From: Escherichia coli
GTDB lineage: Bacteria; Pseudomonadota; Gammaproteobacteria; Enterobacterales; Enterobacteriaceae
Direction: 5' to 3' (one strand)
NCBI RefSeq assembly: GCF_051903065.1
Contig: NZ_CP178438.1
DNA length: 64,000 nucleotides
This document shows, piece by piece, positions 26,196 through 43,317 of the stretch (positions are counted from its first letter, which is position 1; every line of letters begins with the position of its first letter). The notes beneath the pieces were generated by a model that did not search any database, had not been told where the DNA came from, and worked only from the letters and a program-made list of their open reading frames with translations. A program made the position numbers and the translations under genes.

Positions 26196-26388
26196 TCTAC
26201 CGCCTCTGAATTTCATTTTTTGTCAGCAATCAACTTAGCTGAATTTACTTTTATTTAACAGTTCATTCATTAATCACCGTTTACCACAGCATTAATGGCA
26301 AATAAGTCGCTATACTTCGGATTTTTGCCATGCTATTTCTTTACATCTCCAAAACAAAACATAACGAAATGCACTGTCGGACAGCCAA

Positions 26389-37343: not shown

Positions 37344-37946
37344 AATTCACAGGTGTTTTTTCCCATCCTGTGGTTTCCTTGGCGTTTTCTAGGTTTTTTC
37401 AGATAGTTGCATTTTTTAAAAAGCATCCTAAGTTCGATCTCAGTGTCTATCTGGGGCCTATTTCTGTCCCATATATGCCCCAAAAAAACTCCCCAACAGA
37501 TAAGTAGTTTTTTCATGGATTTATGCGTAAAATCAAGAACGGCTGGAAATCATTCAATACTCACACTATCGAAAAATTTACCAGCCAACCGCAGCACGTT
37601 CTTGCATAAGGCGTGTCTGCGTTTTTTCAACTATTCAGATACATCACTCCCATCACAGTCATTCCTCCGCATCAAAGGCATATAGGCTATATCACCTTGA
37701 TATTTTTCTTTTTCAGATAAAAACTGTTATCTATGTATACTTTTAAACCCAATCCGTGTAGAGTCTCTGCATAAGATAGTTTGCAGTTGCCGCTTCAGCT
37801 TGCGCCATAAACCGCCTGATTTTTGCTGCCACCTGCTAGCATTCCTGTATACCTGAAACGACAATGTTTATCTACGAACTTTAAAAACACCCAAGATAAA
37901 AATTGTCAACTATATCATATATAACACATTACTAATTCGAGGCTAT

Positions 37947-38060
37947 ATGAACAGCATACTGATAATCACTTCTCTCCTTATCATATTCAGCATTTTTAGT
38001 CATGCCCTAATAAAATTAGGGATTGGCATATCCAATAACCCAGACAAAACCGATGTATAA
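37947..38060 (+). CDS. Candidate small hydrophobic protein (37 aa)
   Basis: ATG...TAA encodes [37 protein letters not shown], a single predicted TM helix; no homology check possible here. Confidence 0.3.
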
Positions 38061-38128
38061 GTCAACATATCCTGAATCAGACATACAATATCGCAATGAA
38101 AATCAATAATATTTTAAGGAATATCTTC

Positions 38129-38362
38129 ATGAAATCAAAAGACACCCTAAAGTGGTTCCCTGCGCAGCTTCCTGAAGTAAGAATTATCCTAGGGGATGCT
38201 GTAGTGGAAGTAGCAAAACAGGGAAGACCTATTAATACCAGAACATTGCTTGATTACATTGAAGGAAACATAAAGAAAAAATCATGGCTGGATAACAAAG
38301 AATTATTACAAACAGCGATATCAGTTCTTAAAGACAACCAAAATTTAAATGGTAAAATGTAA
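38129..38362 (+). CDS. ydfK: Prophage cold-shock-induced protein YdfK
   Basis: 77 aa from MKSKDTLKWFPAQLPEVRIILGDAVVEVAK... Confidence 0.8.
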   Translation: MKSKDTLKWFPAQLPEVRIILGDAVVEVAKQGRPINTRTLLDYIEGNIKKKSWLDNKELLQTAISVLKDNQNLNGKM

Positions 38363-38679
38363 TATAATAAACTTACTTTTTTATCATTTTTCCACTTTAA
38401 CAACATTTTTCTCCACTTTTCCACGTCCAAACAACTTGAAATCTGGTTAAAATAACACGCAACACTATTCTTCTTCCTTGAGTCCGCCCGGAACTCGAAA
38501 AACAAACCGAGTTAAAGCCATTTTTCACAAAATCGATTTTGGGTCTCACCAAAAATTACGGGGTTGCATACGCATTCGTTTATTTTCGAACGTGTACATA
38601 CAAATATGCACAAAAATAATCATAATTATTTTCTGAGATGCATTATGATATGAACACCAATTTCGAATAGAGTCTCACT

Positions 38680-39270
38680 ATGTCTCGAATTTTTGCTTAC
38701 TGTCGGATATCAACGCTGGATCAGACCACCGAAAATCAACGCCGGGAAATCGAAAGTGCAGGTTTTAAAATCAAACCTCAGCAAATAATCGAAGAACACA
38801 TTAGCGGCTCAGCAGCAACCAGTGAGCGTCCTGGTTTTAACCGGTTGCTTGCTCGCCTGAAATGTGGTGATCAATTGATTGTGACAAAACTGGATCGCCT
38901 TGGTTGTAATGCAATGGATATCAGGAAAACAGTGGAACAACTGACCGAAACAGGTATCAGAGTGCATTGCTTAGCATTGGGTGGCATTGACCTGACCAGT
39001 CCAACAGGAAAAATGATGATGCAAGTAATTTCAGCAGTCGCTGAATTTGAACGAGACCTTTTACTTGAACGCACTCATTCCGGGATAGTAAGAGCCCGCG
39101 GCGCAGGGAAACGTTTTGGTCGACCACCTGTGTTAAATGAAGAACAGAAACAGGTGGTATTCGAACGAATTAAGTCAGGTGTAAGTATAAGTGCCATTGC
39201 CCGGGAATTCAAAACCTCGCGGCAAACCATTTTAAGAGCCAAAGCAAAACTTCAGACACCTGACATATAA
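38680..39270 (+). CDS. pinQ: Serine recombinase, DNA invertase (Pin/Gin/Hin family)
   Basis: 196-aa ORF with catalytic N-terminus [15 protein letters not shown] and C-terminal HTH. Confidence 0.9.
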
Positions 39271-39367
39271 AAAATAATCTCGGTGTGAGATGCTTTACGT
39301 GTTCCAAGCCCCCTTCCTTGCCGTAAATGGAAAGATACATCTAATTATAGAATTTATATGTTTTACC

Positions 39368-39943
39368 CTACGGCAGTGCTGGCCATTCAATATCCTGTGC
39401 AGTTGACGTATCAACACGGTTCAGCAATACCCGATACTTTTTCCATGCTTCCAGCAACGAGATTTCTTCCTCCGTTGCAATTTCCAGATCTGCAGCATCC
39501 TGAAGCGGCGCAATATGCTCACTGGCTACCTGCATCAGGTTGTTTTTTGTTTCTTCCGCCTCCCGGATCCGGAACAGTTTTTCTGCTTCCGTATCCTTCA
39601 CCCAGGCTGTGCCGTTCCACTTCTGAAACTCCCCTTCCGGCGATAACCAGGTAACATTTTCCGGTAACGGACCGAGTTCAGAAATAAATAACGCGTCGCC
39701 GGAAGCCACGTCATAGACGGTTTTTCCCCGATGATCTTCAACGAGATGCCACGATGCCTCATCACTGTTGAAAACAGCCACGAAGCCTGCCGGAATATCT
39801 GGCGGTGCAATATCGGTACTGTTTGCTGGCAGACCTGTATGAGGCGGAATATATGCGTCACCTTCACCAATAAATTCATTAGTTCCGGCCAGCAGATTAT
39901 AAATTTTTATGGTCTGTGGTTGTTCACTCATTCTGAATGCCAT
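39368..39943 (-). CDS. tfaQ: Tail fibre assembly protein
   Basis: 191-aa ORF of the lambda Tfa family, immediately downstream of stf. Confidence 0.85.
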
Positions 39944-41159
39944 TATGCAAGCCTCACAATATAGTTAAATGCGATGTTTTTGACGGTGTTTTCCGCGTTA
40001 CCAGCAGCGTTAACGGTGATGGTGTGTCCATGTGAACCAATCGCAACGGAGTGCGTATGAGCACCAATACCGACAGTATGTGCATGTGCGCCTGCGCTTG
40101 CAGCAGTGCCGGACAGCGAGTGGGTATGAGCACCATCTGATGATGTCTTCCCTGCATTACGAGTCTGGCCACTACCGCTTGTTGTGCTCATAATCCCCGC
40201 GCTTAGATTTGAAATCGCGGTATAACCATTAGGGAAAATGCTCGTGTTCGTGCCACCAAATGCACCGGAACTCTTGTGTTGGTGCGCACCGGCACTATTT
40301 GCAGTCCCGCTAATACTATGGGTATGCGCCCCGGTGTTATTCGTGGATTTGGTTCCGTAATCAAACGACGATGTGTTTTTCGTCCCCAAATCCGTACTGG
40401 ATGCGCTGGCGCTGTGGGTGTGCGATTTAATGCCGTCCTGTTCCTGAGACAATACGGCACGACCACTGGCGGGTTTGCCCTTAATCGTCCAGCCACGCAT
40501 ATCAGGGATCACGGCTGACGGATAAGCGGCTGCAAGTTTCGGGTATGCAGATTTGTCAAAAGTCTGCCCCTGCATCAGGGCATAGCCAGACGGAACGGTA
40601 TCTGATGGCCACGGGATTGGTGCGCCAGGCGGATAAAACTGCTCTGATGGCGTATAGAGTGAATAAACTGTACCGTCCGTTAACCCTTCCGGCTTATTAG
40701 CAGAATATGCTGGTGACGTATGAATCGTCACGCTGGCATTACTGGTATAATCCCATTGAATATTTACACCAGTCGCATAATTTCCGATTGCAACGTAAAT
40801 ATCGTAAGTATCACCAGATGTATTGACCCAGGCAAAATTTGTAAACCCTGTCGATGTGCGCTGCCATAAAGCACCAGTAATCCCCTTCGGATTACCATTA
40901 CCTGCACGCAAAACAAGTTCAGATATACCTGCCTGTTGAGGTGACCCCACGTTAAATCCCGCGCCACCAATCAACGTAATTGAAACAACAGAACTCGCCT
41001 GTGGCATGGTTACCGTTGCTAATTTGAACCAACCAGCACCACCGCTGAATGACATTGTTGTTGAGTTAAGCGTACCAATATCTTTCGGCGTCAGTGTTAT
41101 ATCCGCTGAAAGCGCCTTACCATTCACCTTACGGGCAGAAGGTACCCGACCATTCGCAT
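39943..41159 (-). pseudogene. stfQ: Side tail fibre protein, C-terminal portion only (5' end cut by the IS903-like element)
   Basis: Open frame runs without a stop from the IS boundary at 41159; Gly/Ser/Thr/His-rich repeats typical of Stf; nearest start (GTG) at 41127. Confidence 0.8.
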
Positions 41160-42216
41160 GGCTTTGTTGAATAAATCGAACTTTTGCTGAGTTGAAGGAT
41201 CAGATCACGTATCTTCCCGACAACGCAGACCGTTCCGTGGCAAAGCAAAAGTTCAAAATCACCAACTGGCCCACCTACAATAAAGCCCTCATCAACCGTG
41301 GCTCCATAACTTTCTGGCTGGATGATGAAGCTATTCAGGCCTGGTATGAGTCAGCAACACCTTCTTCACGAGGCAGACCTCAGCGCTATTCTGACCTTGC
41401 CATCACGACTGTGCTGGTCATTAAACGCGTATTCAGGCTGACCCTGCGCGCTGCGCAGGGCTTTATTGATTCCATTTTTTCTCTGATGAACGTTCCGCTA
41501 CGCTGCCCGGATTACAGCTGTGTCAGCAGGCGGGCAAAGTCGGTTAATGTCAGTTTCAAAACGCCCACCCGGGGTGAAATCGCACACCTGGTAATTGATT
41601 CCACCGGGCTGAAGGTCTTCGGTGAAGGCGAGTGGAAAGTCAAAAAGCATGGCCAGGAACGCCGCCGTATCTGGCGTAAGCTGCATCTCGCCGTTGACAG
41701 TAAAACACATGAAATCATCTGCGCTGACCTGTCGCTGAACAACGTTACGGACTCAGAGGCCTTCCCCGGGTTAATCCGGCAAACCCACCGGAAAATCAGG
41801 TCAGCCGCCGCCGATGGCGCTTACGATACCCGGCTATGTCACGATGAACTGCGGCGTAAGAAAATCAGCGCGCTTATCCCTCCCCGAAAAGGTGCGGGTT
41901 ACTGGCCCGGTGAATATGCAGACCGTAACCGTGCAGTGGCTAATCAGCGAATGACCGGGAGTAATGCGCGGTGGAAATGGACAACAGATTACAACCGTCG
42001 CTCGATAGCGGAAACGGCGATGTACCGGGTAAAACAGCTGTTCGGGGGTTCACTGACACTGCGTGACTACGATGGTCAGGTTGCAGAGGCTATGGCCCTG
42101 GTACGAGCGCTGAACAAAATGACGAAAGCAGGTATGCCTGAAAGCGTGCGTATTGCCTGAAAACACAACCCGCTACGGGGGAGACTTACCCGAAATCTGA
42201 TTTATTCAACAAAGCC
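41160..42216 (+). mobile_element. IS903-like element (IS5 family, IS903 group), 1057 bp
   Basis: Terminal inverted repeats GGCTTTGTTGAATAAATC at 41160-41177 and its reverse complement at 42199-42216; flanking 9-mers differ (CATTCGCAT versus TTTATGACC), so no target-site duplication. Confidence 0.85.
41192..42160 (+). CDS. IS903-group DDE transposase
   Basis: 322-aa ORF recognised as IS903/IS102-like transposase (…[42 protein letters not shown]…). Confidence 0.85.
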
Positions 42217-43317
42217 TTTATGACCTAAAAGAAGTTCGACAATATAAGGATCCGCCCCCATATCATTAAGCGTAGTGGAAAATGTGCGCCTGAAATCATG
42301 TATGCACCACAAGCCATTAGTATCATGACCAAGACACCTGCATATTCTGTTTGCAGCCCCTGTTATTGTCGCCCTTTGCAAAGCACAACCGACAACATAA
42401 CCGCGATTTTTTGTTTCTGCGTAAAGATTAACGATCCATTGTTTTATTCCGTCAGGAACAGGCCTTACTATAGCCTCCTTGTTTTTGCTGTGCTCTTTTG
42501 GGACTGTCCATACCCAGTTTTTTAAATCCCATTCGTCCCAGGTGGATAGCCTCGCCTCCTGCTGTCGGCAACCAAACACCAGGCAGATAACCATTATTCT
42601 TCGGTTATATATTGATGACAGAGTTAGCAAATTATTACCGTAAGCATAAGACCATACATCAGCGGTTTCATTGATATTAAGAACGCGATCCCTTATACCG
42701 GATGAGCGCCCGACATAACTTACGTTAATATCTCCAAAGGGATCGCACGCGATGTATTGCCTGACGCGACAAAAACGCAACGCCTGTTTGATATCAAGAA
42801 AAATTGCACCAGACATAACAGGCGCATTTTTTTTGATCCTGTCAAAGACGGTAAGCCATGTGTGTAATTTGCACTGTTCTATAGCCATATCACCGATATA
42901 GGGGAAGATATGCTTTTCAAATCGTTTTATTAAATATTCATGCTCTTTTCTGGCTGTTGTGGCGTGATTGTCGTACCAGTAAAACAGCGCATCCCTTACG
43001 GTCACTGGTTGCATAGTTTTTTCGGCAGCAAGTTTTATTTGCCTGCGGGGGTCCAGATTTTCAGCCAGCCATTCACGGCACTGATCACGCATGCGCCTGG
43101 CCGTTGCAAGAGACATGTCAGGATAGCGACCAAGTGTAAGCCATACCGGAGGGGATTCCCTGCCACCAAGACGATAGTAAAAAACAAAGCTGATCCCCCC
43201 AACCATGCTTACACGCACAGACAACCCGCGCCCATCCGCTATTGTTTTTTGTTTGTCCTGCCGTTTTCCGACAAGACTCTTTAACAGTTTGTCACTGAGT
43301 TTGTTTTCAATAGCCAT
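42217..43317 (-). pseudogene. P4-like tyrosine integrase, 3'-truncated by the IS903-like element
   Basis: P4-type N-terminus and HDFRRTF...LLGH box, but the frame runs into the IS terminal repeat before the catalytic tyrosine would be encoded. Confidence 0.8.

Follow-up and report, generated by a model that had tools for sequence, protein, structure and literature searches.

The window analysed here, a stretch of 64,000 nucleotides of an Escherichia coli chromosome (contig NZ_CP178438.1), contains the right end of a Qin-type lambdoid prophage that is inserted in ydfJ. The gene order at the locus is ydfI, ydfJ', ynfT, ydfK, pinQ, tfaQ and the C-terminal 404 codons of stfQ. We focus on pinQ, a well-known prophage gene, on its ancestry and on its relation to the tail-fibre genes on which it converges:

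38680..39270, + strand: pinQ, small serine recombinase of 196 residues (Pfam Resolvase 2.5e-36, HTH_7 3.8e-11)
39368..39943, - strand: tfaQ, tail fibre assembly gene of 191 residues, convergent with pinQ (Caudo_TAP 3.6e-43)
39943..41159 (open frame 39943-41157), - strand: stfQ remnant, truncated on its 5' side (Collar and fibre-repeat domains, Pfam)

The coordinates and the Pfam domains of the three genes (E-values of 1e-6 to 1e-43) agree with a preliminary description of this DNA, which had placed pinQ, tfaQ and a truncated stfQ at these positions and had assigned the recombinase to the Pin family of DNA invertases. The PinQ protein encoded in the window is identical to K-12 PinR, which is encoded in the Rac prophage, and 99% identical to K-12 PinQ, from which it differs at two residues (R3Q and V158A) despite the Qin position of the gene in ydfJ. 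The stfQ remnant corresponds to residues 584-987 of a side tail fibre of 987 residues and is identical to that of E. coli 042 at 403 of its 404 residues.

Homology of the pinQ region to a Tn3-family transposon

Assignment to the Pin family does not fit the sequence relationships of the protein: PinQ is 38% identical to PinE, the Pin protein of e14, as against 79-85% to TnpR resolvases of a Tn3-family transposon. Among proteins of solved structure the best match of PinQ is Gin (105 bits), only modestly above gamma-delta resolvase (83 bits). The transposon-encoded TnpR behaves in the same way, being 39% identical to PinE and scoring 92 bits with Gin and 88.5 bits with gamma-delta resolvase. TnpR is thus about as distant from the one as from the other, and the resemblance that lies behind the name of PinQ is generic, at the level of the family. 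NCBIfam holds no curated family specific to PinQ.

The protein database contains a large clade of proteins with 77-85% identity to PinQ, encoded on more than 1,800 plasmids. In the four neighbourhoods that we examined (P0014, P0084, P0100 and P0073; 79-85% identical), which come from plasmids of E. coli and Klebsiella, from the Hafnia-type protein P0100 and from Shewanella baltica, the recombinase gene lies 160 bp from, and divergent to, the gene for a transposase of 994 residues with DUF4158 and DDE_Tnp_Tn3 domains. The S. baltica genome has three copies of this transposon with differing flanks, two of them with 5-bp target duplications (TTTAA and ATGGG), which is what an active transposon of the Tn3 family would leave. 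The idea that the plasmid homologues are multimer-resolution systems of the plasmids themselves was rejected, since the neighbourhoods show transposon TnpRs, some of them by remnants of tnpA. The transposon may correspond to ISSba14- or Tn5403-like entries in ISfinder; a literature search matched the sequence of its terminal inverted repeat (IR) to no paper, and the papers on ISSba14 and Tn5403 gave no sequence. At the nucleotide level, blastn aligns the transposon with the window at 82.2% identity over 712 bp (38600-39309), and manual alignment carries the homology on to 38567. On these alignments we take PinQ to be a TnpR-type resolvase by descent, orthologous to the TnpRs encoded beside the Tn3-family transposase.

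The homology extends beyond the gene on both sides and covers the following candidate features:

38567..38592, + strand: relic of res site A, CATACGCATTCG TT TATTTTCGAACG, with a degenerate left half; aligns to the 26-bp dyad (12-2-12) of the transposon that lies nearest to tnpA
38607..38638, + strand: relic of res site B, TGCACAAAAATA ATCATAAT TATTTTCTGAGA; homologous to the 32-bp dyad TGTCCGAAAGTC-N8-CACTTTCGGATA of the transposon
38639..38670, + strand: relic of the res site C region, with further half-site-like motifs and the -10-like motif TATGAT, TATAAT in all transposon copies
39276..39313, - strand: diverged relic of the right terminal IR, marking the end of the relic (minus strand GGGGGCTTGGAACACGTAAAGCATCTCACACCGAGATT)

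The approximately 115 bp before the pinQ start codon align with the tnpA-tnpR intergenic region of the transposon, and the order and spacing of sites A, B and C agree between the two. Site A of the transposon (for example TGACCGAAAATG AC CGGTTTCGGACA, 26 bp, 12-2-12) is presumed to be crossover site I by analogy with Tn3 and gamma-delta. A promoter-like match, TGTACA-16-AATAAT at 38593-38620, overlaps the site B relic. In a half-site model that was built from only 16 transposon half-sites and that gives sequence scores, not binding measurements, the half-sites of the relic score -0.9 to 6.7 bits versus 10-18 bits for those of the transposon. For site A the two half-sites have -0.9 and 6.2 bits versus 14-18 bits in transposon copies; the site B relic reaches 12.1 bits as a dyad versus 30.0 bits in the transposon, with shuffled sequence at 11-15.4 bits. 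The transposon dyads reach 34 and 30 bits. By these scores the relic subsites would fall below the strength expected of functional binding sites. Neither the window nor the whole genome of phage 2H10 contains a convincing second res-like dyad, the best candidates having 17-18.5 bits versus 11-15 bits for shuffles and 30-34 bits for real sites. The strongest half-site match on the + strand of the window, TGACCGAAACAG at 38942-38953 inside pinQ (12.9 bits), has no dyad partner and is probably coincidental; the strongest on either strand (13.2 bits) is at 26372 on the - strand.

On the other side of the gene, the intact transposon has a 38-bp IR, GGGGTCCGCTTGGAAAACGGAAAATATCCCACGCTAAG, which begins GGGGTCCGCTTGG and directly follows the tnpR stop codon in six copies. 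The IR relic sits directly after the pinQ stop codon and is identical to the transposon IR at 24 of 32 positions without gaps. The homology to the transposon stops at 39309, both in blastn and in the megablast match of a plasmid copy (hit H145). The significance of the IR relic comes from its exact position and from its continuity with the homology of the gene. A search of the window with TnpA in tblastn detected no trace of tnpA (best E = 0.25), and no second terminal IR was found in the window. In total, we suggest that 38567-39313 is a 0.75-kb relic with the structure res-tnpR-IR, from which tnpA and the left end would have been lost.

Two observations concern the DNA around the 5' end of the relic. 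First, identity to the copy in the DLP12-type prophage is 96-100% upstream (37900-38650) and 82-98%, mostly 86-92%, from there onward, placing a mosaic recombination boundary at about 38650-38670, in the site C region. Because of this boundary near 38650 the conservation upstream is not informative on constraint on the res relic, and its reading as a sign of selection was dropped. Second, the phage-specific DNA before the relic, which has no homology to the transposon, contains two small palindromes, at 38494-38515 (AACTCG-N10-CGAGTT) and 38531-38542 (AAAATCGATTTT); both are kept in 2H10, Tritos and KSC64.

The tail-fibre segment and the truncation of stfQ

The preliminary description noted one tfa with one truncated stf and suggested that the segment may be locked in one orientation, which amounts to a decayed inversion system of the Gin/Pin type that had lost a second stf'-tfa' set and its crossover sites. 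This reading has in its favour that a small serine recombinase adjoins tail-fibre genes, as in Mu, P1 and e14, and that databases annotate the gene as a DNA invertase.

The layout J-lom-stf-tfa converging on pin, followed by ydfK, is common to E. coli 042, strain 23CRST027 (with a 987-residue Stf), phage 2H10, K-12 Qin, Rac and a DLP12-type prophage. Every relative with stf-tfa genes that we retrieved (042, 23CRST027, 2H10, K-12 Qin, Rac and KSC64) has a single stf-tfa set. Phage Tritos has the same placement of pin and ydfK, with a different tail-fibre module that lacks lom and with no second inverted set. In total, a second, inverted tail-fibre set is present in none of 042, 23CRST027, 2H10, Tritos, Qin, Rac and the DLP12-type prophage. 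A PinQ that is 99-100% identical to that of the window is encoded in 11 deposited phage records, among them 2H10 and Tritos, both at 100%. The same single set is thus found in intact prophages and in viable phages that encode an identical PinQ, and the notion of a segment locked by decay does not survive this comparison. The DLP12-type prophage of E. coli KSC64 also contains a C-terminal piece of a second tfa (L016 5035-5247), on the far side of four genes (a methyltransferase gene, ynfT, ydfK and pin). This piece has the same orientation as the main tfa, so that the four genes, which are on the opposite strand, have a full tfa on one side and a direct tfa fragment on the other; the arrangement may be the footprint of a replacement of the tail-fibre module.

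Searches for crossover sites gave a similar picture. Using the genuine e14 crossover sites of K-12 (pixL TTCTCCCAAACCAAGGTTTTCGAGAG and pixR TTCTCCCAAACCAACGTTTATGAAAA), zero matches to the pix core with up to three mismatches were found in the whole 64 kb. A scan of the window with a two-half-site Din consensus gave at best a 26-bp stretch with 14 of 20 positions, which is at chance level. Apart from the ends of an insertion sequence (IS), the best inverted-repeat pairs near the genes are 70-84% complementary over 15-33 nt, and in three intact relatives, the 042 prophage and the phages 2H10 and Tritos, the same search gave weak pairs only. The 97-bp spacer between pinQ and tfaQ (39271-39367) has no crossover site; it holds the diverged transposon terminal repeat at 39276-39313. 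No inverted gix-like sites had been seen by eye in the preliminary description, and the computed search for flanking 26-bp sites or inverted repeats likewise found none; the recombinase is indeed an orphan beside one tfa-stf set, without crossover sites in cis. Two repeat pairs were considered and discarded: the arms 37810-37833 and 38542-38565, which bracket ynfT-ydfK, are 75% complementary over 24 nt and have no further support, and the presence of AAAGTGGTTCCCTGCGC / GCGCAGGGAAACGTTTT in all relatives is fully explained by the location of its arms in the conserved genes ydfK and pinQ.

The orientation of the segment is also uniform among the records covered. In 2,046 E. coli records the sequence runs without a break across the pinQ-tfaQ junction, and the exceptions among the 40 of 4,993 records that we inspected row by row are an IS1414 insertion, tfa genes of prophages without pin and a transposon copy on a plasmid. 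Among the contiguous junctions and the sampled exceptions we did not find both orientations of the tail-fibre segment. In agreement with this, Kirigo et al. 2025 (PMC12529663) give e14 as the only place where they found inversions, with none in Qin or rac, and remarked that PinQ does not invert the DNA adjoining it, a remark with which the orphan recombinase of the window agrees.

These results leave next to no room for a decayed inversion system. PinQ is much closer to transposon resolvases than to PinE; pin converges on tfa here, as opposed to e14, in which pin adjoins the 5' end of the alternative stf'; the same single set occurs in intact viable phages; pix-like sites are lacking in the window, and flanking inverted repeats in the window and in intact relatives; and the gene is flanked by a res homologue and a transposon IR. 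We conclude that the tfaQ-stfQ segment is fixed and that it is not, and never was, invertible, because (i) the gene, the site upstream of it and the terminal repeat are homologous to a transposon, (ii) intact phages have a single set, and (iii) there are no Gin/Pin-type sites and no second res-like site.

The truncation of stfQ has a separate cause. The end coordinate 41159 in the preliminary description is the junction with an IS element, and the features on the two outer sides of the locus are:

38130..38362, + strand: ydfK, cold-shock protein gene by the annotation of E. coli 042 and strain 23CRST027, in which this DNA is identical
41160..42216, + strand: IS903B (IS5 family), 1,057 bp, with terminal inverted repeats 41160-41192 / 42184-42216 and DDE transposase domains; annotated as IS903B in hit H163

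In the closest genome, that of strain 23CRST027, the two flanks of this IS903B lie approximately 28 kb apart. The cut in stfQ is therefore the edge of an IS903B-bounded deletion, and site-specific recombination is not involved. IS903B joins the middle of stfQ to a 3'-truncated tyrosine integrase gene (42202-43317, - strand; region 41160-43317), beyond which lie a portal-gene fragment, a head-tail joining gene and lambda-type terminase genes; the genome of the window appears to have lost most of the tail region of the prophage in the IS-bounded deletion. On the other side, ynfT lies farther upstream than ydfK. Both are phage accessory genes upstream of the relic, and the order ynfT-ydfK-pin is also found in Rac, Qin, the DLP12-type prophage and phages.

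Active site, constraint and function of PinQ

PinQ differs from the transposon TnpRs at a position of the active site:

38905..38907, + strand: codon 76 of pinQ, TGT = Cys, in the motif LDRLGC; aligns with the catalytic Arg (Tn3/gamma-delta R71) of LDRLGR

Compared with the catalytic set of Tn3 resolvase (Y6, R8, S10, D36, R68 and R71), PinQ has Y7, R9, S11 and R73, and the equivalent of D36 is Glu throughout the clade. Cys76 occurs only in five prophage-type clusters out of 120, including a lineage that is 15% diverged; of the 115 others, 114 have Arg, and in the remaining one the motif is not readable. PinE reads LDRLGR, and PinQ, PinR and the 15%-diverged prophage lineage read LDRLGC. In Tn3 resolvase, the R71A and R71K substitutions left no detectable recombination and cleavage approximately 1000-fold slower, with binding retained (PMC2794168). 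Because every prophage copy has Cys at the R71 position and because its own binding sites are far from the transposon consensus, PinQ is probably a poor recombinase. A few rare hybrid recombinases (P0004-P0008) resemble the transposon proteins in their N-terminal part, which has the catalytic Arg, and PinQ in their C-terminal part, which ends in AKLQTPDI, suggesting recombination of a transposon copy with a prophage pin gene that restored the Arg.

The ratio of nonsynonymous to synonymous substitution rates (dN/dS) is 0.33-0.36 between the two prophage lineages versus 0.02-0.07 among transposon copies; constraint on the prophage gene is relaxed to about half and has not vanished. Genes of the pinQ/pinR type are present in 2,796 of 5,426 complete E. 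coli genomes, i.e. in about half.

Combining the homology, the comparison with relatives and the state of the active site, we suggest that an ancestral lambdoid phage received a Tn3-family transposon immediately past its tail-fibre assembly gene, and that the transposase gene and the left end would then have been lost, leaving the degenerate res, tnpR (now pinQ) and the right IR. A resolvase would require two full res in direct repeat on one molecule; as only one decayed copy is present here, local rearrangement would not be expected. That pinQ is the tnpR of a Tn3-family transposon within a res-tnpR-IR relic, beside tail-fibre genes that were never invertible, is the explanation in which we have good confidence.

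Several points weigh against this explanation. The alignment score of the IR relic, 16, is no higher than that of the best chance match in a window-wide search, the left boundary of the relic is not placeable to the base, and a lambdoid phage with an intact transposon, which would represent the intermediate, was looked for and none was found. The resolvase activity of the transposon homologues is read from gene order, and the effect of the Arg-to-Cys change is extrapolated from Ala and Lys mutants of Tn3 resolvase and would hold by analogy. A dN/dS below 1 together with 100% identity across viable phages indicates that the gene is not simply decaying. Finally, overproduction of K-12 PinQ has been reported to lift inversion of the e14 P segment from approximately 30% to 88% and to protect against T2 (PMC12529663), and this PinQ-driven inversion speaks for an active protein in spite of Cys76.

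The last point leads to the model of Kirigo et al., in which PinQ is a fully active invertase that acts in trans, cutting and rejoining the pix sites of the e14 P segment to generate a chimeric StfE2 that blocks adsorption of T2; the locus in the window would then supply the enzyme of a defence system that is divided between two places. In addition to the increase in inversion, T2 survivors carry the inversion, protection is absent without stfP, stfE or e14, and T2 induces the pinQ/pinR transcripts 14-fold (PMC12529663). Moreover, site A of the transposon shares the 12-2-12 geometry of Din crossover sites. Against direct catalysis, deletion of pinE alone locks the P segment though pinQ and pinR are present, and the strain list has no pinE-null strain with PinQ and no mutant of the catalytic serine (PMC12529663). 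Overproduced PinE gives approximately 49% inversion, as for a reversible invertase, and the 88% obtained with PinQ would rather suggest selection or a non-catalytic bias. Furthermore, PinQ has no Arg equivalent to Tn3 R71, and the pix half-sites score only -11 to -2 bits in the half-site model of the PinQ clade, the recognition helix of which PinQ shares. The window itself has neither e14 nor a pix site. Overall, we regard direct inversion by PinQ in trans as unlikely, though as an alternative to be taken seriously, and the sequence comparisons suggest that the published effect on the P segment may be an indirect one.

Because viable phages and about half of E. coli genomes keep the gene intact, PinQ probably retains some DNA-binding or trans-acting role, which could be weak autoregulation at the promoter-overlapping res relic or the modulation of another recombinase. 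A tentative model, to which we give somewhat less than an even chance, is that PinQ and PinR are catalytically impaired pseudo-recombinases kept by lambdoid phages for non-catalytic DNA binding, and that inversion in e14 is catalysed by PinE with PinQ merely biasing or stimulating it; such a bias could come about by mixed complexes, by occupancy of sites or by selection.

A further alternative is that PinQ is still a working resolvase that acts on the res relic whenever two copies meet, as in phage dimers or between Rac-type and Qin-type prophages, for multimer resolution or module exchange. In its favour, several viable phages carry the gene in intact and identical form, the res homologue upstream is kept in all copies, and the mosaic breakpoint of the two prophage lineages lies near 38650, just upstream of pinQ. 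This breakpoint, however, does not coincide with site A, the presumed crossover site, and is explained by ordinary homologous recombination; in addition, the relic subsites are at chance level as dyads and the catalytic Arg is missing. Lambdoid phages package their DNA from concatemers, and we know of no need for dimer resolution in them. We consider resolution by PinQ at the relic very improbable.

Relation to known systems

Genes of the pinQ/pinR type are annotated everywhere as DNA invertases and underpin an anti-phage mechanism claimed in 2025. Resolvase ancestry, a decayed res and an absent catalytic Arg change what is to be expected of experiments on PinQ, and they point to the controls that are missing from the anti-phage claim, namely a pinE-null background and the Ser11Ala and Cys76Arg variants. 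They also spare annotators the search for a non-existent invertible tail-fibre segment beside genes of this type; the locus in the window is an ordinary, fixed prophage remnant.

Pin of e14, Gin of Mu, Cin of P1 and Hin of Salmonella resemble PinQ in being small serine recombinases, in having tail-fibre neighbours, in the name pin and in the annotation as invertase. Gin, Cin, PinE and Hin are approximately 60-70% identical to one another. The pinQ locus differs from these systems in the 38% identity of its product, in having no inverted 26-bp sites and in having one tail-fibre set; e14 has two sets, and the orientation of its gene relative to tfa is opposite to that of pinQ.

The PinQ and PinR proteins studied by Kirigo et al. 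are products of the same gene as that of the window, but are treated there as active invertases related to PinE, without mention of an ancestry among transposon resolvases, of the res and IR relics or of the Cys at the position of the catalytic Arg (PMC12529663). A Tn3-family res-tnpR-IR relic with a catalytic Arg-to-Cys change appears not to have been stated before in the papers that we consulted.

Tn3 and gamma-delta resolvases have the same domain architecture as PinQ, and their elements share with the intact transposon homologues the divergent tnpA-res-tnpR arrangement, with differently spaced dyads that overlap promoters. The half-site core is TGTCCGAAA here and is related to that of gamma-delta, TGTCYGATAA / CGTTCGAAAT. 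The similarity of PinQ to gamma-delta resolvase amounts to only approximately 83 bits, and unlike gamma-delta the window has a single decayed site without a partner. The presumed crossover site of the transposon is 26 bp long (12-2-12), as in invertase sites, as opposed to 28 bp in gamma-delta.

The closest relative of the element in the window is the Tn3-family transposon with a TnpA of 994 residues and a divergent TnpR of 194-196 residues, to which it corresponds in the recombinase (79-85%), in the upstream res, in the position of the right IR and in nucleotide sequence (82% identity over 712 bp). Unlike the transposon, the copy in the window has neither tnpA nor a left IR, its res half-sites are degenerate, Cys has replaced the catalytic Arg and constraint is 5-15 times weaker, and rather than transposing it is carried by lambdoid phages.

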